This document shows positions 6,510 through 54,982 of a stretch of 64,000 bases of DNA, piece after piece. The number at the start of each line of letters is the position of its first letter. Position 1 is the first letter of the stretch. Position numbers and translations under genes: made by a program. The notes beneath the pieces were generated by a model, which saw only the letters and a list, made by a program, of their open reading frames with translations, made no database searches and was not told where the DNA came from. The DNA is from Shigella phage SP21535: the sequence record PQ615101. One strand, 5' to 3'.

Positions 6510-6934
6510 TAGCTTAATCCTAATGCTTTACGGCGTTTAAGAGCTTTTTTACGCTTACGCTGAGCACGAGATTGACCTGCTGGATTGGCAATCTTCGTTT
6601 TGGTAGCTTTGCGAGCAATTTGTCTACGTTTTGCTTTAGACAGCCCAGTGGTTTGAAATGCATTACGTTCGCGTGTTTTGCGGTCTTTAGTACGTGTAAT
6701 TTCACCACGAGCTGAAACATGCTTAACAATGAATTCATTTAACGGCATATTTTCATTAATAGAAGCTAATGCAACTGCTAAATCAGTTTCATCATCAAGC
6801 ATATTCTCGACAATTGTATTTATATCGTCTTTATTTAAAGCAGAAGACAATTCGTCAAAGCGACCCTGTGCTTCAGGAATAAGTGCTTCGACATTCTCGA
6901 GAACTAATTCATGAGTTTCAGGGATCAGAAGCAT
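6509..6934 (-). CDS. 68: prohead core protein gp68
   Basis: 141 aa, basic C-terminus; gene order. Confidence 0.8.
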
Positions 6935-7181
6935 TATTCATCATCCTCGTCTTCGTCATCTTCGTCAGAGTCTTTGTCTTTTTTGTCGTCTTTATCATCA
7001 CTATCTTCGTCTTCGTCATCATCCTCGTCTTCAGGTTCTTCACCTTCGATTAAGAAATTACGAGCGATAGCGATTTTTTCTTCTTTAATTAAATCAATCG
7101 TTCTTGCAGCCATGGCTTCAGCAAATAATTTACGAGCGGCTACGAGGTCGTTTGATTTAATAGCTTCAATTAAACCTTCCA

Positions 7182-7182: not shown

Positions 7183-8777
<1,595 letters not shown>

Positions 8778-8786
8778 TTATAGTTA

Positions 8787-8794
8787 TATTTATA
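8787..8794 (-). promoter_or_regulatory. late promoter TATAAATA upstream of gene 20
   Basis: Exact TATAAATA on minus strand about 31 nt upstream of ATG. Confidence 0.5.
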
Positions 8795-8841
8795 ATGGAC
8801 TTCTCTGCTTTAAGCAGGATGGGGATTTCTCCCCATTCATT

Positions 8842-9333
8842 TTATTCCCAATAATCGAGAGCAAGAGTTACTTCAAATGTTTGGATTTCATTGTTTGAAT
8901 CCCAATCTAATTGAAGTTCACCCACGTTAGTAGGCCACAAGCCTTTAATTTCGATTTCTTTTGTTACTGTTTTAGCGTCACGAGCATATTGACGAACGAT
9001 AGCGCTCTTTTTATACTCTGCAGGTTTTCCACCAGTAATTTCGTTTCCTTGCCCCGCAGCAATGCTTTGCCAATCAACGAACTTCTGACGAGCATCATGA
9101 GCTTCATCGTTCATTACTGTAACAGTCCAGTCATCGAATGTACGATCGCCTGCTACATTAATTTTACGGTTCATAAATCCGACTGGAATTTTTTCTACAA
9201 TACCAGCTGGTAAAGCAGTGGCTTTACACTGAAACGTAAAATTTTGTCCAAGATAAGAAATTTCTACTTGGAATAAGTTAGGTCGAGCAAAATCACCAGA
9301 TTCAAACGCTCGTGTTACATCATCTACAAACAT
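8842..9333 (-). CDS. 19: tail tube protein gp19
   Basis: 163 aa; gene order. Confidence 0.9.
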   Translation of the reverse strand: MFVDDVTRAFESGDFARPNLFQVEISYLGQNFTFQCKATALPAGIVEKIPVGFMNRKINVAGDRTFDDWTVTVMNDEAHDARQKFVDWQSIAAGQGNEITGGKPAEYKKSAIVRQYARDAKTVTKEIEIKGLWPTNVGELQLDWDSNNEIQTFEVTLALDYWE

Positions 9334-47954: not shown

Positions 47955-48175
47955 TGGCAAAGATAATTATTGAAGGTTCTGAAGATGTGCTAAATGCTTT
48001 CGCCGAGTGGTTTAGTAATTCAGGCGAACAGCAATTTAATGAAGCGTGGAACATGGGTGATATTAGTGGAATTTATCCTACGACAGAAATTTCTGTTCAA
48101 GGATATGGAATTCATGAACCTATTCGTTTAGTTGAATATGATTTGGGAACAGGTGAGGAAGTAAAATATGATTGA
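47954..48175 (+). CDS. hypothetical protein
   Basis: 73-aa ORF, start overlaps upstream stop. Confidence 0.45.
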   Translation: MAKIIIEGSEDVLNAFAEWFSNSGEQQFNEAWNMGDISGIYPTTEISVQGYGIHEPIRLVEYDLGTGEEVKYD

Positions 48176-48434
48176 AGACATTAAAGGTTATAAGCCACAT
48201 ACTGACGATAAAATCAGTAAAGTGAATGCTATCAAAGACGCTGAAGTTCGTTTAGGACTTATCTTTGATGCTTTATACGATGAATTCTGGGAAGCATTAG
48301 ATAATTGTGAAGACTGCGAATTCGCAAAGAATTATGCTGAAAGCCTCGATCAGTTAACTATTGCTAAAACGAAACTCAAAGAAGCCAGTATGTGGGCTTG
48401 TCGTGCTGTGTTCCAACCAGAGGAAAAATACTAA
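48168..48434 (+). CDS. hypothetical protein
   Basis: 88-aa ORF, start overlaps upstream stop. Confidence 0.45.
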   Translation: MIEDIKGYKPHTDDKISKVNAIKDAEVRLGLIFDALYDEFWEALDNCEDCEFAKNYAESLDQLTIAKTKLKEASMWACRAVFQPEEKY

Positions 48435-50125: not shown

Positions 50126-50589
50126 TTGTAAAATATATCAAGGGCGATATTGTCGCCCTTTTCGCTGAAGGTAAAAATATTGCGCATGGATGCAATTGTT
50201 TTCATACTATGGGTTCAGGCGTAGCGGGTCAATTAACCAAAGCTTTCCCTAAAATTTTGGAAGCTGATAAATTACAGACTGAATGGGGTGATGTAACTAA
50301 ACTTGGTTCTTACTCAGTCTATGAAAAATACTTTAGGACTCATAAAGCGTATTGCTTCAACCTTTATACTCAATTTCAACCAGGGCCAAATTTTGAGTAT
50401 TCCGCTTTAATGAATTGTATGTTAGAATTAAATGAGTTTGGTGAAAATAAACTGATTAAACCTACAATCTATATGCCTAGGATTGGTGCAGGCATAGGTA
50501 AAGGGAACTGGGATATTATTGAGGGGATTTTAGATACATATTCCTCTAAATTAGAAATTGTGATTGTTGATTGGGAACCATTATTATGA
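50122..50589 (+). CDS. macro domain protein (tk.4 position)
   Basis: 155 aa; macro-domain-like glycine-rich stretches (GCNCFHTMGSGVAG, RIGAGIGKG). Confidence 0.6.
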   Translation: MIVKYIKGDIVALFAEGKNIAHGCNCFHTMGSGVAGQLTKAFPKILEADKLQTEWGDVTKLGSYSVYEKYFRTHKAYCFNLYTQFQPGPNFEYSALMNCMLELNEFGENKLIKPTIYMPRIGAGIGKGNWDIIEGILDTYSSKLEIVIVDWEPLL

Positions 50590-50798
50590 ATATACATTAT
50601 CCACATCCATATGACCCAAAGAATAAGGCAGTAATTATTCGTCAATGGGAACGCATTTGCCGTACTAAATGTCCAATTAATAGTCCACACGATGTAGATA
50701 AAGACTACATTGGAACATTCGTTGAATATACCTTTATTGATAGGAAAGGTCGTAAACAACATGTAGAAGAATATTGCTTAAAGGTTACATGGTTATGA
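50571..50798 (+). CDS. hypothetical protein
   Basis: 75-aa ORF. Confidence 0.4.
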   Translation: MGTIIMNIHYPHPYDPKNKAVIIRQWERICRTKCPINSPHDVDKDYIGTFVEYTFIDRKGRKQHVEEYCLKVTWL

Positions 50799-50980
50799 GT
50801 CTGAGTAAAGAACAAAAAGATAAATTGTTTGAGCTTATCCATGAACTTCTAGATGAGCATACAGAAGCAAACACCTTTTATGATGAATACGGCCCGCTAT
50901 CTCCCGAACAGCAAGAAGAATTTGCTGACCGGTTTGATAAGAAAGAAAACGAATTAATAGCTTATGTGAATACGCTTTAA
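50789..50980 (+). CDS. hypothetical protein
   Basis: ATG 50789 (track start 50774 is TTG). Confidence 0.4.
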   Translation: MVMSLSKEQKDKLFELIHELLDEHTEANTFYDEYGPLSPEQQEEFADRFDKKENELIAYVNTL

Positions 50981-50989
50981 GAAGGTGAT

Positions 50990-51571
50990 ATGGCGAGTTT
51001 AATTTTTACTTATGCAGCAATGAATGCTGGAAAATCTGCTTCTCTTTTGACTGCTGCGCATAATTATAAAGAACGCGGAATGGGTGTATTAGTTCTTAAA
51101 CCTGCTATTGATACTCGCGATTCTGTCTGTGAAGTCGTTTCTCGCATTGGAATTAAGCAGGAAGCAAATATTATTACAGATGATATGGATATTTTCGAGT
51201 TCTATAAATGGGCTGAAGCACAAAAAGATATTCATTGCGTATTTGTAGATGAAGCCCAGTTTTTAAAAACTGAACAGGTGCATCAATTGAGCCGAATTGT
51301 TGATACATATAATGTTCCTGTTATGGCCTATGGTCTAAGGACTGATTTCGCCGGAAAATTATTTGAAGGTTCTAAAGAACTTTTGGCGATTGCAGATAAA
51401 CTTATTGAACTAAAGGCAGTTTGTCATTGTGGTAAAAAAGCTATTATGACAGCTCGATTAATGGAAGATGGAACACCCGTTAAAGAAGGTAATCAAATCT
51501 GTATTGGTGATGAAATTTATGTTTCTTTGTGTAGAAAACATTGGAATGAATTAACTAAAAAGCTCGGTTAG
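50990..51571 (+). CDS. tk: thymidine kinase
   Basis: 193 aa; P-loop NAGKS, Zn-binding CHCG...C..C. Confidence 0.9.
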   Translation: MASLIFTYAAMNAGKSASLLTAAHNYKERGMGVLVLKPAIDTRDSVCEVVSRIGIKQEANIITDDMDIFEFYKWAEAQKDIHCVFVDEAQFLKTEQVHQLSRIVDTYNVPVMAYGLRTDFAGKLFEGSKELLAIADKLIELKAVCHCGKKAIMTARLMEDGTPVKEGNQICIGDEIYVSLCRKHWNELTKKLG

Positions 51572-51613
51572 TGCAAAAGTTATAAATAGGTTTATCTAAC
51601 TAAAGGGGTATAT

Positions 51614-51826
51614 ATGCTACAATTAACTGAAAAGCAACTTCGCAATCTTACTGTTCTTCAATTAGATGAAATTCGTAGGGAAGTTGGAAATATCATTTCA
51701 GCTTTGCGTCGAGAAGTATCACTCAACCAATCTCCGGCAGACTATACTAGATTGCGAAATTTTGAAAAATACCTTGATAAAGTTAAGGCCGTGCATCGGC
51801 ATAAAGTAAATACAGGACAAAAATGA
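51614..51826 (+). CDS. hypothetical protein (rI.1 position)
   Basis: 70-aa ORF. Confidence 0.45.
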
Positions 51827-51838
51827 TAGGAGGCCTTT

Positions 51839-52132
51839 ATGGCCTTAAAAGCAACGGCACTATTTGCCATGCTAGGATTAGCGTTTGCTTTATCTCCACC
51901 GATTGAAGCGAATGTCGATCCTCATTTTGATAAATTTATGGAATCTGGTATTAGACACGTTTATATGCTTTTTGAAAACAAAAGCGTAGAATCATCTGAA
52001 CAGTTCTATAGTTTTATGCGAACGACTTATAAAAATGACCCGTGCTCTTCCGATTTTGAATGTATAGAGCGAGGCGCGGAGATGGCACAATCATACGCTA
52101 GAATTATGAACATTAAATTGGAGACTGAATGA
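51839..52132 (+). CDS. rI: lysis inhibition regulator RI
   Basis: 97 aa with N-terminal signal-anchor; gene order. Confidence 0.75.
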   Translation: MALKATALFAMLGLAFALSPPIEANVDPHFDKFMESGIRHVYMLFENKSVESSEQFYSFMRTTYKNDPCSSDFECIERGAEMAQSYARIMNIKLETE

Positions 52133-52515
52133 AATTCAGCGACTTTTCACAAAGTGGAAAACCTTCAAAGGCAGATGAATACTTAGGTTTATTAATGGCT
52201 GCACAAGCTTATTTTCATTCTGCACATTTTGAAACTAAAAATTATGCTAGACACAAAGCATACGATTTTATTTTCTCCGAGTTGCCAGATTTGATTGATA
52301 AATTTGGTGAGCAATATTTGGGGTATTCTGGTAGAAAATACACGCCGTCAATTCCGGATGCCAGTAAACTTCCTACCGACACAATTAAAATGATTGATCG
52401 TATACTAGACCAATCTAACAGCATTTATAAAGAAATGCCTCCAGCCATTCAAAGCACGATAGATGATATTACTGGAATGTTTTACCAGAGCAAGTATCTT
52501 CTTTCCCTCGAATAA
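52129..52515 (+). CDS. hypothetical protein (rI.-1 position)
   Basis: 128-aa ORF overlapping rI stop. Confidence 0.5.
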
Positions 52516-52519
52516 CATT

Positions 52520-52543
52520 AGTCTCCTTCGGGAGACTTTTTTC
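52520..52543 (+). terminator. rho-independent terminator
   Basis: AGTCTCC-TTCG-GGAGACT followed by TTTTTT. Confidence 0.65.
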
Positions 52544-52552
52544 ATTTTACCG

Positions 52553-52582
52553 GTTTACTTTCCGTTTGAGCTGTGGTACTAT
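52553..52582 (+). promoter_or_regulatory. early promoter cassette (GTTTAC ... TGGTACTATACAACTATC)
   Basis: GTTTAC 52553-52558; conserved GGTACTATACAACTATC block. Confidence 0.5.
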
Positions 52583-52610
52583 ACAACTATCGGATAAAGA
52601 GGAGAACATC

Positions 52611-52799
52611 ATGAAAATTGAAGCACTTAATCAAGAAGGAAATATCTACGTCATCATTAATGGTGATTTTTTCGTCGACATGGATGAAGTTACCAGTGAA
52701 GAACTTGTAGAACTTCTTAAGAAACGTTATAATATGTGTGATGAAGTTGCAACTCACATGGCGTGTGCAATATTCTCTCTTTCATATGTGGTGGAATAA
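52611..52799 (+). CDS. small helical protein, tandem paralog 1
   Basis: ATG 52611 after GAGGAGAACATC. Confidence 0.45.
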
Positions 52800-52981
52800 T
52801 GATTAGTATCGAACAAGCAGATAAAATCAAGGAATTAGTGGCTTTAATTCGTAAAGCAGATGAGGAACGCATTAACTTTGCCTTATCAGGTATTGAAGAA
52901 TTTGAAGATAAAGTTAACAATGCTGTAGAAGCGTTAGATATGTTTCTTGATGAAATTATCGATCATAATACGAGAGTTTAA
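52799..52981 (+). CDS. small helical protein, tandem paralog 2
   Basis: ATG 52799 overlapping upstream stop. Confidence 0.45.
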   Translation: MISIEQADKIKELVALIRKADEERINFALSGIEEFEDKVNNAVEALDMFLDEIIDHNTRV

Positions 52982-52983
52982 GT

Positions 52984-53178
52984 ATGCTAACACGCGAACA
53001 GTTTGAAAAAATCATTAAATTAGCACGTGATATTGAAATAGATTCATATCAATTAGCAGTTGAGCATTGTGAAGGATATTCATACGACGGTATAGAAGCA
53101 GCTAAAAGGGATTTGGATAAATCCAAAGCTAAGTTAGTTCAATATCTTGAAATGATTAGGTGGAATAATGAAAACTGA
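52984..53178 (+). CDS. small helical protein, tandem paralog 3
   Basis: 64-aa ORF. Confidence 0.45.
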   Translation: MLTREQFEKIIKLARDIEIDSYQLAVEHCEGYSYDGIEAAKRDLDKSKAKLVQYLEMIRWNNEN

Positions 53179-53341
53179 AAAGCAGATGTTTTTAATGAAG
53201 CTAATTGAAGAATATGCTAATGCAGTTTCTGACTATGAGTGTTCTTCTCGGGAAAGAGGTATAGCTTTCGCAAAGGAAGAAATGAAAATCATGGTTGATG
53301 CTCACACAAAGCTTCAGAATTTTATTGAAAACGTCATTTAA
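53168..53341 (+). CDS. small helical protein, tandem paralog 4 (below ORF-track cutoff)
   Basis: ATG 53168, 57 codons to TAA 53339-53341. Confidence 0.35.
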   Translation: MKTEKQMFLMKLIEEYANAVSDYECSSRERGIAFAKEEMKIMVDAHTKLQNFIENVI

Positions 53342-53343
53342 TG

Positions 53344-53373
53344 GTTTACAAGTTGGCAAGGTTATGGTATAGT
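53344..53373 (+). promoter_or_regulatory. early promoter (GTTTAC ... TGGTATAGT)
   Basis: GTTTAC 53344-53349; TATAGT 53368-53373. Confidence 0.45.
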
Positions 53374-53505
53374 AATCTTGTCAACTGCCAAGGAGAAGAG
53401 AATGAAAATTTTGTTTGTTGTGTATGTGATGATTCAATATAATTACCCAATGTTTACTTATAATCTAGTGAACAACATTATTGATATTATTCAGAGGAGT
53501 ATGTA

Positions 53506-53691
53506 ATGACAAGTGAGCAGGCTTTTAAATTAAGAGAATTAATTGAGATGTATAGTAAAGCTGTTCATACATCAACAATTATTGATGAATCAGCTTTCTC
53601 CGGACATGCTAACAAGATTAAATACAAAACTCTTATGGAAGAAGCTAAAGTAAATCTTGATTCTTATATTGAAACTTTAATTGGTGAATAA
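53506..53691 (+). CDS. small helical protein, tandem paralog 5
   Basis: 61-aa ORF. Confidence 0.45.
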   Translation: MTSEQAFKLRELIEMYSKAVHTSTIIDESAFSGHANKIKYKTLMEEAKVNLDSYIETLIGE

Positions 53692-53959
53692 CATGGGCTT
53701 TCCTAAATTAGAAGTAGGTGATTTAGTTTTAACAAAATTATGGAATGGTGTTCAATCAGTAGAAATCTGCCAATATCGTGGAGCAACAGGTAATTTGATG
53801 TACACGATTTATAATCCAGAAATTTTGTTAGAGTGTCATTTGGAACGCTTTATAAAAGACACCGATAGTATGCCTTATAGTGTATCAATTGTACGTAAAT
53901 CTGATACAAAGGAATATTCTAAAATTTTAGAACAAATTCGTGCCAATAAAAAGGATTAA
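53681..53959 (+). CDS. hypothetical protein
   Basis: 92-aa ORF. Confidence 0.45.
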   Translation: MVNNMGFPKLEVGDLVLTKLWNGVQSVEICQYRGATGNLMYTIYNPEILLECHLERFIKDTDSMPYSVSIVRKSDTKEYSKILEQIRANKKD

Positions 53960-54500
53960 TATGAAACGATTAGTATTAGAAGTTAGTTCACTTTTTGGTG
54001 AATTGGCTATAGAAAAAGTAAATAATATGTATCGTTTGACGCAAGAAGATGATATGCTATATTTTACGCCTAGTGAAATCATTCATTTAACCCAAATTGA
54101 AAATCCTTATACTGATAAAATTGTAAGCATTAATGATGAGCATAAAATTCATTTTTATTCTTCATGCCCAGGATTTAATATTGAAAGCGAGTCAATATGC
54201 TTATCAGTTATCCATTGGGATAGTTTTATAGATAAGATTAAATATTTTTATTATTCTAATGAAAGAAAACATAGTTTAAAATGGCTTAAAAATTGCAATG
54301 CTATTATTACTAACGCTTGTGATCAGTGCGATCAGAATGATGAAACTGATACTTATATGTGTGTTTTAAAAGCTGGTGGTGACCGTCATCCGGATTTTAT
54401 TTCTATTCGTCAAAACAATGGAGAAATTTCATTATCAAAATCAGAAGCTGAAGCTATGATTAAGTATTTAACAACTGTTACACCTTCAATGAAAGGATGA
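53940..54500 (+). CDS. hypothetical Cys-rich protein
   Basis: 186-aa ORF. Confidence 0.45.
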   Translation: MPIKRINMKRLVLEVSSLFGELAIEKVNNMYRLTQEDDMLYFTPSEIIHLTQIENPYTDKIVSINDEHKIHFYSSCPGFNIESESICLSVIHWDSFIDKIKYFYYSNERKHSLKWLKNCNAIITNACDQCDQNDETDTYMCVLKAGGDRHPDFISIRQNNGEISLSKSEAEAMIKYLTTVTPSMKG

Positions 54501-54982
54501 TTATAATTATGATTATTAATGAAAACTCTTGGCACTATAAAATTTACTCGGCATTTAATAGCACATGGAATCGTCCAAAAACGTTATGTGCTTATTTTTG
54601 GAAAACGTTTCTCCCGGTATTAGCTGTTTCAATTGTTGGATTTGCAACTTTAGCAGGTGCCGCAATAATTGGCCAAGAAATTTTAATTAAATTCTTTGTC
54701 TTTAGTAGTCTATGGACATTAGTTCCGGCTTCAATTGGTATAGGCATTTTAGCATTATCGGTTATGGTTCTTATTGCTGTCGGGGCGGTAATTGGTCCTT
54801 CCTGGTTGTTAGACAAATATAACGACCGAAAGCTCAATAAAGAAATTGAGTTCATTGTACAAAACGAAGAACGAATCAAAAATGGACTTGAGCCTATTCA
54901 ACCCAAGAAATCGATTATCGTTGAATTTTTAAAAGCTCGTAAAGCTAAAGTATGTCCTGTTATTGAATATAAGGCTGAATGA
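54497..54982 (+). CDS. polytopic membrane protein
   Basis: 161 aa with several hydrophobic helices. Confidence 0.5.
   Translation: MIIIMIINENSWHYKIYSAFNSTWNRPKTLCAYFWKTFLPVLAVSIVGFATLAGAAIIGQEILIKFFVFSSLWTLVPASIGIGILALSVMVLIAVGAVIGPSWLLDKYNDRKLNKEIEFIVQNEERIKNGLEPIQPKKSIIVEFLKARKAKVCPVIEYKAE

Follow-up and report, generated by a model that had tools for sequence, protein, structure and literature searches.

Do the five small open reading frames (ORFs) lined up between positions 52611 and 53691 of Shigella phage SP21535 belong to one family, and what could such a family do? No lytic phage is better studied than T4, yet a role is known for only about half of its genes. The window (the whole 64,000-nucleotide stretch of record PQ615101 that was analysed) is a Tequatrovirus (T4-like) genome, in which the region discussed here shares 98% identity with Tequatrovirus genomes and is collinear with T4 tk-rI-mobD. 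An earlier note had described the five ORFs as a tandem array of paralogs behind early promoters. All five were found where it had placed them (Table 1), and they correspond to the early operon mobD.5-mobD.2a and to an additional gene, here called the 53506 ORF, which T4 lacks.

Table 1. Genes and putative expression signals of the early region discussed in the text
Feature	Position	Strand	Length or composition	Matches
tk.2 homolog	50795..50980	+	61 aa	DUF7438 69.6 bits, E 2.9e-19; phrog_653, E 1e-26
Terminator-like hairpin (intrinsic)	52520..52537	+	7-bp stem, TTCG loop, T run; 3' of rI.-1	
Early-promoter-like site	52554..52582	+	TTTACT-17 nt-TACTAT with upstream TG; read from sequence	
mobD.5 ortholog	52611..52799	+	62 aa; first gene of the operon	phrog_3024, E 2e-44
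mobD.4 ortholog	52799..52981	+	60 aa from ATG	DUF7438 50.5 bits; phrog_653
mobD.3 ortholog	52984..53178	+	64 aa	DUF7438 63.3 bits
mobD.2a ortholog	53168..53341	+	57 aa, full-length	DUF7438 52.4 bits; phrog_2758
Second promoter-like site	53345..53373	+	TTTACA-17 nt-TATAGT with TG; between mobD.2a and mobD.2	
mobD.2 ortholog	53402..53506	+	34-aa hydrophobic peptide	phrog_3515, E 1e-21
53506 ORF (fifth ORF of the array)	53506..53691	+	61 aa	DUF7438 55.0 bits; phrog_4859, E 3e-38

Raw pairwise identity to the mobD.4 product (52799) was weak (19-27%), and in Smith-Waterman alignments compared with shuffled sequences only the pairs 53168/53506 (z 5.7) and 52799/53506 (z 4.1) stood out. Since such pairwise alignments were too weak to join all members, we used HMM and profile-profile tests. 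Four of the five ORFs (mobD.4, mobD.3, mobD.2a, and the 53506 ORF) matched the Pfam family DUF7438 with E values of 3e-13 to 3e-17. The fifth true DUF7438 paralog lies outside the coordinates of the earlier note: it is the tk.2 homolog, located 1.8 kb upstream of the array, with its stop codon 9 nt ahead of the tk start. Each of these five genes matched the profile over its full length (positions 1-57) at 50.5-69.6 bits, compared to a gathering score of 25 bits. A family HMM run over 908 six-frame ORFs of the window scored only the same five (E 1e-15 to 4e-24), with the next best ORF at E 0.079. The tk.2 homolog reached only E 0.0024 with the first-built family HMM and 6e-19 with the rebuilt one; since the latter and the Pfam model both match, we regard its membership as settled. 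Alignment of subfamily profiles with hhalign connected mobD.4 with mobD.3 (E 5.5e-7), and the 53506 subfamily with both mobD.4 (E 4.7e-6) and mobD.2a (E 2e-5). Across PHROGs the family is spread over groups 653, 2758, and 4859. Judged from these sequence comparisons, the genes at 50795, 52799, 52984, 53168, and 53506 are almost certainly diverged paralogs within DUF7438, a family of early T4-like phage proteins of ∼60 residues that had been catalogued before. We also considered rI.1, tk.3, mobD.2, and a tudor-domain gene as possible relatives and rejected them (hhalign probability ≤3.5%).

The first ORF of the array, mobD.5 (52611), behaved differently. It had no Pfam hit and no DUF7438 match at E ≤1, was not reported when the window was scanned with the family HMM at E ≤10, did not exceed a shuffle z of 0.3 against any other ORF of the array, and reached hhalign probabilities of 0.1-1% against DUF7438. 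Its AlphaFold2 (AF2) model showed a β3-α2 arrangement (E3-8, E11-16, E20-23, H29-40, H44-61; pLDDT 89), a predicted fold that differs from the helical hairpin of 52984 (mobD.3). mobD.5 is thus an unrelated small protein at the head of the operon and no paralog. The HMM alignment proposed in the earlier note joined four of the five products and left 52611 unlinked. A single family comprising all five ORFs, for which their likeness in length, acidity, and position within one operon could be cited, is almost certainly the wrong grouping. Likewise, the N-terminal pattern that had been thought common to all (E-Q-x-x-K-[IL]-x-E-L) occurred as such in 52799 and 53506 and in degenerate form in 52984 and 53168, and 52611 lacked it. 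Because mobD.5 is no paralog, the array consists of four paralogs split by a 34-aa ORF, plus the paralog at 50795-50980. Comparison of the mobD.5 model with the PDB gave no significant fold match. Weak resemblances to RiPP-recognition-element or ClpS-like domains (E >0.3) were discarded, as were sequence matches to designed "Bagel" propellers in the PDB, which spanned only a 17-residue β-hairpin.

The 34-aa ORF is mobD.2, which sits inside the paralog array and is not a DUF7438 member. Several genera conserve it, sharing the motif QYxxP[ML]FTYNxVN, and its pN/pS is ∼0.22. A terminator-like hairpin sets the array apart from the upstream operon. The early-promoter-like site that follows is the counterpart of the T4 mobD.5 promoter, and lies where the window shares 97% identity with T4; the site scored under the threshold of a generic sigma-70 scan. 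In T4, reverse-transcriptase stops map to the mobD.5 promoter, which is thus used experimentally (PMC1702504), the mobD.2-mobD.5 RNAs are all classed as early, and the MobD.3 and MobD.4 proteins were detected early (PMC9697503, supplement). Early expression of the array, as the earlier note had supposed, is therefore supported for the T4 orthologs. The second site is a candidate promoter by consensus match (10 of 12 positions). Within the array, gene starts are closely coupled to the preceding stop codons and have Shine-Dalgarno sites: the mobD.4 start overlaps the mobD.5 stop (TAATG), mobD.2a overlaps mobD.3 by 11 nt, and the 53506 ORF starts within the mobD.2 stop. A scan of positions 50500-54600 against Rfam returned no match and no sign of an RNA element.

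To what extent has this gene set been maintained? DNA identity to the T4 ortholog was 94-99% for three DUF7438 genes of the window and only 68% for the tk.2 copy. mobD.2a, intact in the window, is broken by a frameshift in the T4 reference into a 38-aa piece and a remnant. Positions 53518-53962 have no T4 counterpart, and the 53506 copy is absent from T4; it occurs in 191 phage records, compared to 585 for mobD.3. For mobD.4, other phages carry an allele of 67 aa whose loop is extended by 7 aa, and loop-indel alleles occur in the family. Copy number varied from none in RB49 and Entb_43 to five in the SP21535 window and PD112, with one copy in Roth16 and TG1, two in PhAPEC2, VR26, and contig L004, three in dhabil, and four in AR1, Shfl2, and RB68; T4 has four intact copies and the frameshifted one. 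Among 1.84 billion protein representatives, 19 clusters at 50% identity matched DUF7438, and the cultured phages carrying it were T-even-like only. Searches of IMG/VR with two distant members found nothing.

One alternative takes these ORFs as filler without a function, or as duplicates undergoing decay where the genome is hyperplastic. The frameshift in mobD.2a, the absence of the 53506 copy from about two-thirds of the genomes that carry mobD.3, and the dispensability of all DUF7438 genes (see below) would fit this idea. However, pN/pS ranged from 0.12 to 0.28 in four members, similar to rI (0.12) and tk (0.16); the calculation covers these four, as the 53506 copy, with one near-identical ortholog only, was left out. 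The four DUF7438 genes with computed pN/pS are hence under purifying selection. Moreover, full-length frames are retained in hundreds of genomes, T4 proteins have been detected, and the coupled starts with their Shine-Dalgarno sites count against decay as well. We therefore consider decay or filler improbable.

What the proteins may look like was judged from mobD.3, the sole member modelled. Its AF2 model, of moderate confidence, folds into a helical hairpin (H4-16, H21-28, H34-63; pLDDT 78) with a loop of lower confidence (pLDDT 58-70). DUF7438 members are accordingly predicted to be all-α, two-layer helical hairpins of about 55-67 residues. Conserved among them are an N-terminal T-x-E-Q cap and a heptad-like hydrophobic seam running along both helices (mobD.3 positions 10, 13, 14, and 17, and 40, 44, 51, 54, 55, and 58). 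In the column analysis the connecting segment, where the indels fall, and the exposed faces were variable. Searches of the mobD.3 model against the PDB returned only generic hairpin matches (best E 2.7), and against BFVD an ortholog alone; PDB sequence searches retrieved no solved structure for the DUF7438 or mobD.5 families.

All 20 aligned members were acidic, with net charges between -2.4 and -10.5. Rop is a small four-helix-bundle former, and in size and helical-hairpin build the DUF7438 proteins would resemble such bundle formers. They might then be nucleic-acid mimics, comparable to anti-restriction proteins of the Ocr/Arn type, or Rop-like four-helix-bundle binders of RNA or DNA; acidic hairpin dimers could imitate DNA, thereby inhibiting restriction proteins and others that bind DNA, or could bind structured RNA. 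The strong acidity of several members (tk.2 -10.3, mobD.4 -8.4, T4 tk.1 -10.5) would suit a mimic. However, the other paralogs of the window are mildly acidic (-2.4 to -3.4), neither Rop nor any DNA mimic came up as a significant PDB match of the mobD.3 model, and an acidic charge speaks against direct nucleic-acid binding. Overall, we regard this possibility as unlikely.

The T4 genes themselves have been covered by two genome-wide screens. DUF7438 genes and tk were non-essential by transposon sequencing (HIDEN-SEQ, supplement), gene knock-down revealed no fitness effect for DUF7438 genes, and the whole block nrdC.11-mobD.3 can be deleted. DUF7438 genes are thus dispensable in both screens. 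In one conditional comparison within the available part of the HIDEN-SEQ data, none of the seven listed T4 genes, five of them DUF7438 genes, was affected (q = 1). The available part of the HIDEN-SEQ text names no DUF7438 or mobD.5 gene among its anti-defence hits; it does identify nrdC.1, from the same early region, as a Septu inhibitor. The literature found on mobD.x, tk.x, and DUF7438 consisted of incidental mentions, with no functional paper, partner, phenotype, or toxicity, and mobD.x, tk.x, and DUF7438 genes have no entry in the supplementary data of a 2026 study of phage products that are toxic.

As the best explanation, we propose that DUF7438 members could act as stoichiometric binding proteins produced within the first minutes after infection. 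Their scaffold, possibly a dimeric four-helix bundle, would be built by the conserved seam, while the variable loop and surface might direct each paralog to a target of its own, either a host protein or an anti-phage defence protein. A partly redundant set would have arisen through duplication and divergence, and such redundancy could be why single knock-outs are silent. This mechanism, in which a diversified and redundant set binds proteins of the host or of its defences, including oligomeric state, binding, and targets, is tentative and somewhat more apt to fail than to hold. Taken together with the identity and paralogy of the genes, the explanation as a whole is, in our estimate, only slightly more apt to be wrong than right. 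A role in host take-over or anti-defence is consistent with the dispensability of the genes, their variable copy number, and the nearby Acb2 and nrdC.1 genes; nearness to anti-defence genes is weak evidence, though, because early gene order in T-even phages is largely inherited. A further reading, possible but doubtful, is that the family expanded within this lineage into inhibitors of defences or host factors that share a single hairpin scaffold; the variable loop would aim each paralog at another host protein or variant, and redundancy among the 4-5 copies would have masked the phenotype in all single-gene screens of T4 to date.

The position of the genes raises another possibility, namely that they act on phage machinery, for example as small accessory or regulatory subunits tied to thymidine kinase or nucleotide metabolism. 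All located copies either adjoin tk or stand downstream of rI.-1, and the slot upstream of tk is the conserved location: a copy was found there in Tequatrovirus, Mosigvirus, Gaprivervirus, Dhakavirus, Tegunavirus, Klebsiella phage Roth16, and a metagenomic T4-like contig. Throughout this range the most conserved copy abuts or nearly abuts tk. Adjacency is again weak evidence given the inherited early gene order, and RB49 and Entb_43 retain tk without any DUF7438 gene. In addition, tk is as dispensable as all the paralogs, and the expanded copies are found at a distance of 1.8 kb and follow a separate promoter. A link to phage machinery thus appears rather unlikely, if less so than mimicry of nucleic acids.

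A further candidate function was suggested by annotation. In one database record the Roth16 member is labelled "anti-CBASS protein acb2", and the family could accordingly be thought to comprise cyclic-nucleotide sponges of the Acb2/Tad1 helical-hairpin type. A genuine Acb2 homolog, likewise small, helical, and early, is indeed encoded in the same early region of the window, 2.4 kb upstream (48168-48434; 70.6 bits to Acb2_Tad1_hairpin). The Roth16 protein itself, however, belongs to DUF7438 (57.3 bits) and has no Acb2_Tad1_hairpin match. Alignment of the family to Acb2 gave an hhalign probability of 0.2%, and none of the five members in the window matched PF24729 at E ≤1. At the level of sequence a sponge of this type is already contradicted, and we hold it to be very improbable.

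Two other names are attached to these genes in public records. phrog_4859, which contains the 53506 ORF, bears the label "helicase loader", and RefSeq lists these genes under the product name [quoted passage not shown]. For a helicase loader of the T4 gp59/DnaC type, Pfam offered nothing beyond DUF7438 and one sub-threshold unrelated match in the 53506 ORF; for a MobA/MobB molybdopterin role, no Mob family matched any ORF at E ≤1. Both roles are implausible because proteins of 57-64 aa are too small for them. The Mob label appears to stem from mistaking mobD, which in T4 names a homing endonuclease, for one of the mob genes of bacteria.

As it stands, the outcome clarifies, at the level of annotation, a family already catalogued: DUF7438 accounts for five T4 genes, of which one carries a frameshift in the reference sequence, and for 0-5 genes in the sampled relatives. 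One redundant family without mobD.5 would account for the neutral appearance of single knock-outs and knock-downs. If the members are inhibitors with loop-encoded specificity, they would offer a compact scaffold for studying how counter-defence diversifies in phages.

Among known proteins, ribosomal protein L29, WXG100/ESAT-6 proteins, and EscE-type chaperones share the two-helix hairpin topology of the mobD.3 model (TM-scores 0.5-0.6). With Foldseek E values of at least 2.7 and probabilities of at most 0.23, this resemblance gives no evidence of kinship or shared function. The Acb2/Tad1 anti-CBASS/Thoeris sponges (PF24729; vs.4 in T4) are likewise small, helical, early, and dispensable, and come from the same T-even early region; in contrast to them, DUF7438 members are ∼30 residues shorter and have no sequence or profile similarity to them. 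The closest counterpart is the DUF7438 (PF24219) set of T4 itself, which comprises tk.1, tk.2, mobD.4, mobD.3, and mobD.2a and has its positions in common with the window copies. Compared to this set, the window has the 53506 copy in addition, lacks tk.1, and carries mobD.2a intact, and nothing essential differs between the two.

Four of the five small ORFs that the earlier note had taken for a tandem array of ~60-aa helical paralogs (those at 52799, 52984, 53168, and 53506) matched the Pfam family DUF7438 (PF24219) end to end, with 50.5 to 63.3 bits against a cutoff of 25. When pairwise Smith-Waterman scores were compared with those of 1,000 shuffles, only two pairs were significant (53168/53506, z 5.7; 52799/53506, z 4.1), and the ORF at 52611 never exceeded a z of 0.3 with the others. 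At the level of sequence, the family-level tests are decisive for paralogy. Using hhalign on profiles made separately for each orthologous group, mobD.4 was aligned with mobD.3 (92%, E 5.5e-7) and with the group of the 53506 copy (86%, E 4.7e-6), mobD.2a with the latter group (77%, E 2e-5), and mobD.3 with tk.2 (38%, E 3e-4), while mobD.5, encoded at 52611, reached at most 1% with every DUF7438 group. An AlphaFold2 model of mobD.3 was an all-helical hairpin (helices 4-16, 21-28, and 34-63; pLDDT 78), and that of mobD.5 had three strands followed by two helices, a small beta3-alpha2 domain (pLDDT 89). The observation therefore holds for four ORFs and fails for the first.

No solved structure was found for any DUF7438 member. 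A fold search with the mobD.3 model returned only generic hairpins (L29, WXG100, and EscE; E of at least 2.7), and a second search matched an ortholog only. The mobD.5 model had no significant fold match in the PDB; weak top matches (E >0.3) to RiPP-recognition-element-like and WNK CCT-like domains were rejected. Its C-terminal 16-residue motif is nearly invariant.

Coordinates of features in the window
Position	Strand	Feature	Details
48168-48434	+	Acb2/T4 vs.4 homolog	Acb2_Tad1_hairpin, 70.6 bits
50795-50980	+	tk.2 homolog, DUF7438	69.6 bits; stop 9 nt before tk start
52520-52537		terminator-like hairpin	followed by promoter sequence
52554-52582		T4-early-type promoter sequence	3' of hairpin; corresponds to T4 mobD.5 promoter
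52611-52799	+	mobD.5 ortholog	62 aa
52799-52981	+	mobD.4 ortholog	60 aa
52984-53178	+	mobD.3 ortholog	64 aa
53168-53341	+	mobD.2a ortholog	57 aa; T4 reference 38 aa via frameshift
53345-53373		promoter-like site	TTTACA-17-TATAGT; between mobD.2a and 53506 copy, 5' of mobD.2
53402-53506	+	mobD.2 ortholog	hydrophobic, 34 aa; phrog_3515, E 1e-21
53506-53691	+	DUF7438 copy, no T4 equivalent	61 aa
53693-53959		Phage_tudor gene	PF24144, 137 bits; 88 aa
54497-54982	+	predicted membrane protein	161 aa; between mobD.1 and nrdC.11; no Pfam match

A T4-like metagenomic contig of 173 kb carries a distant DUF7438 member directly 5' of tk, beside a second copy; this pointed to the tk.2 homolog in the window, whose DUF7438 score was the highest there. 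When every one of the window's 908 six-frame ORFs was scanned with a rebuilt family HMM, exactly five genes were detected, the four above and tk.2 (E 1e-15 to 4e-24; runner-up, 0.079). T4 tk.1 and tk.2 also belong to the family. The tk.3-tk slot (window 50586-50980; 8347-8926 of the T4 record, L001) is mosaic among phages, holding only tk.2 in the window, tk.2 and tk.1 in T4, and tk.2 with two other small genes in AR1, RB68, and PD112. Between T4 and the window, tk.2 DNA was only 68% identical, versus 97% for its flanks.

Within 10-kb stretches around tk, RB49 and Entb_43 had no DUF7438 copy, Klebsiella phage Roth16 and Yersinia phage TG1 one (5' of tk in both), PhAPEC2, VR26, and the metagenomic contig two, dhabil three, AR1, Shfl2, and RB68 four, T4 four intact and one frameshifted, and PD112 and the window five. 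The slot upstream of tk is the widely conserved DUF7438 position, and the mobD-side copies are an expansion with Tequatrovirus at its centre. That a DUF7438 gene is conserved next to tk would suggest action with the phage's own nucleotide-metabolism proteins, a reading that we consider unlikely. Run exhaustively against 1.84 billion representative proteins, an HMM matched only 19 clusters at E <=1e-3; a word-indexed search gave 91 near-identical sequences, nearly all of them belonging to T-even phages or to E. coli/Shigella assemblies.

Many Tequatrovirus genomes were 96 to 98% identical to window 52500-53800, and gene order follows T4 (tk, rI.1, rI, rI.-1, mobD.5, mobD.4, mobD.3, mobD.2a, mobD.2, mobD.1) on the opposite strand. 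The segment 53518-53962, found in PD112 and roughly 190 further phage records, was unmatched in T4, where mobD.2 is joined straight to mobD.1; it represents a two-gene module of the 53506 copy and the Phage_tudor gene. This copy occurred in 191 phage records, compared to 585 with mobD.3. The array is interrupted by mobD.2, which has its own promoter-like site and is kept in three genera (Tequatrovirus, Mosigvirus, and Karamvirus) as well as in a Klebsiella phage and a metagenomic T4-like contig with a shared motif, QYxxP[ML]FTYNxVN, a wider spread than that of the flanking mobD-side DUF7438 copies. The T4 mobD homing endonuclease is missing from the window, and the 3' part of mobD.1 differs from T4, similarity stopping at 54347. 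An Rfam scan of the region matched no family.

Alleles of DUF7438 genes vary by loop indels. The 67-aa form of mobD.4 in AR1, Shfl2, and RB68 (6810-7013 in records L014-L016) carries a 7-residue inter-helix loop insertion relative to the 60-aa window form; the two alleles are ~80% identical in DNA, and adjoining genes 96 to 99%. In the T4 reference, mobD.2a (L001 5997-6178) is split into 38 aa and a C-terminal remnant in another frame. Since its annotation spans 174 nt in the T4 stock of a 2025 transposon-sequencing study (HIDEN-SEQ; bioRxiv 10.1101/2025.11.20.689424), the reference frameshift may be strain specific or a sequencing error.

Pooled pN/pS values against six to eight relatives were 0.12 to 0.28 for tk.2, mobD.4, mobD.3, and mobD.2a, 0.11 for mobD.5, and 0.22 for mobD.2 (reference genes rI, 0.12, and tk, 0.16); these values are rough, as comparisons are non-independent and gapped alignments crudely treated, and they do not extend to the 53506 copy, for which a single near-identical ortholog was available. 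Starts are coupled to preceding stops (TAATG at 52799 and 53506; an 11-nt overlap at 53168), with Shine-Dalgarno sequences 5' of them. An exact 13-nt repeat, GGTGGAATAATGA, at 52790-52802 and 53159-53171 bears the Shine-Dalgarno sequence and start codon of mobD.4 and of mobD.2a, and at mobD.4 the stop codon of mobD.5 as well; the repeat could be either a duplication relic or a convergent translational-coupling signal. The placement of the array behind early promoters was borne out: the T4 counterpart of the mobD.5 promoter has been observed experimentally, its transcript being RegB insensitive (PMC1702504), and the supplement of PMC9697503 classes all T4 mobD.2-mobD.5 transcripts as early and lists MobD.3 and MobD.4 as early proteins seen by mass spectrometry. 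Purifying selection and protein detection both argue against these ORFs being functionless filler, which is very unlikely.

In a 20-sequence alignment, conserved columns were T3, E5, and Q6, hydrophobic positions 10, 13 (invariant Leu), 14, and 17 of helix 1, and 40, 44, 51 (invariant Leu), 54, 55, and 58 of helix 2. Residues ~21-39, where indels fall, and exposed faces were variable, which reads as a constant scaffold with a variable surface. All aligned members are acidic (net charge -2.4 to -10.5); that they are nucleic-acid mimics or Rop-like binders is quite improbable.

The HIDEN-SEQ supplement lists tk.1, tk.2, and mobD.2a-mobD.5 as non-essential (insertion saturation, 0.91 to 1.0), and one conditional comparison in that study reports no effect for them. 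Likewise, the same genes are all "Not Fit" upon dCas13d knock-down (PMC11879866 supplement), and the nrdC.11-mobD.3 block can be missing from genome-reduced T4 (PMC9825161). The Acb2 homolog, an anti-CBASS sponge, is encoded in this early region as well, 2.4 kb 5' of the tk.2 paralog, and T4 nrdC.1 is described as a Septu inhibitor in the HIDEN-SEQ preprint. Acb2-like sponging by DUF7438 itself is contradicted by profile tests (0.2% against the Acb2 alignment in hhalign) and is extremely improbable. The mechanism that we tentatively favor is that DUF7438 proteins might bind host or defence proteins stoichiometrically and with partial redundancy, perhaps assembling as dimeric four-helix bundles. 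We infer this from the scaffold with its variable surface, from expression early in infection, from dispensability in K-12, from copy numbers that change by lineage, and from neighbors that are proven counter-defence genes (Acb2, nrdC.1). Conceivable, if rather doubtful, is an anti-defence family whose loops have diversified and whose effects are hidden by redundancy.

Misleading product names for these genes are spreading in public records. [quoted passage not shown] is put on mobD.1, mobD.4, and mobD.5, and "helicase loader" (the phrog_4859 label) on the 61-aa copy and sometimes mobD.3; no corresponding Pfam family was matched for either. "Anti-CBASS protein acb2", put on the Roth16 DUF7438 gene, was likewise unsupported (no match to the Acb2 Pfam family and the same 0.2% in hhalign). 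"Starvation-inducible transcriptional regulator" is put on rI.-1, which is DUF5856.

A literature search found no paper dealing with these genes, which belong to an already catalogued family (DUF7438; PHROGs 653, 2758, and 4859). Four window members are orthologous to named T4 genes, and orthologs of the 53506 copy occur in roughly 190 further phage records. Their paralogy was already implicit in databases; for instance, tk.1, tk.2, mobD.3, and mobD.4 are all entered as phrog_653 in the CRISPRi-ART supplement (PMC11879866). Our analysis goes beyond this by correcting which genes are members, adding a fifth copy, recording how copy number varies among phages, describing the scaffold/variable-loop pattern, and ruling out the misleading labels.
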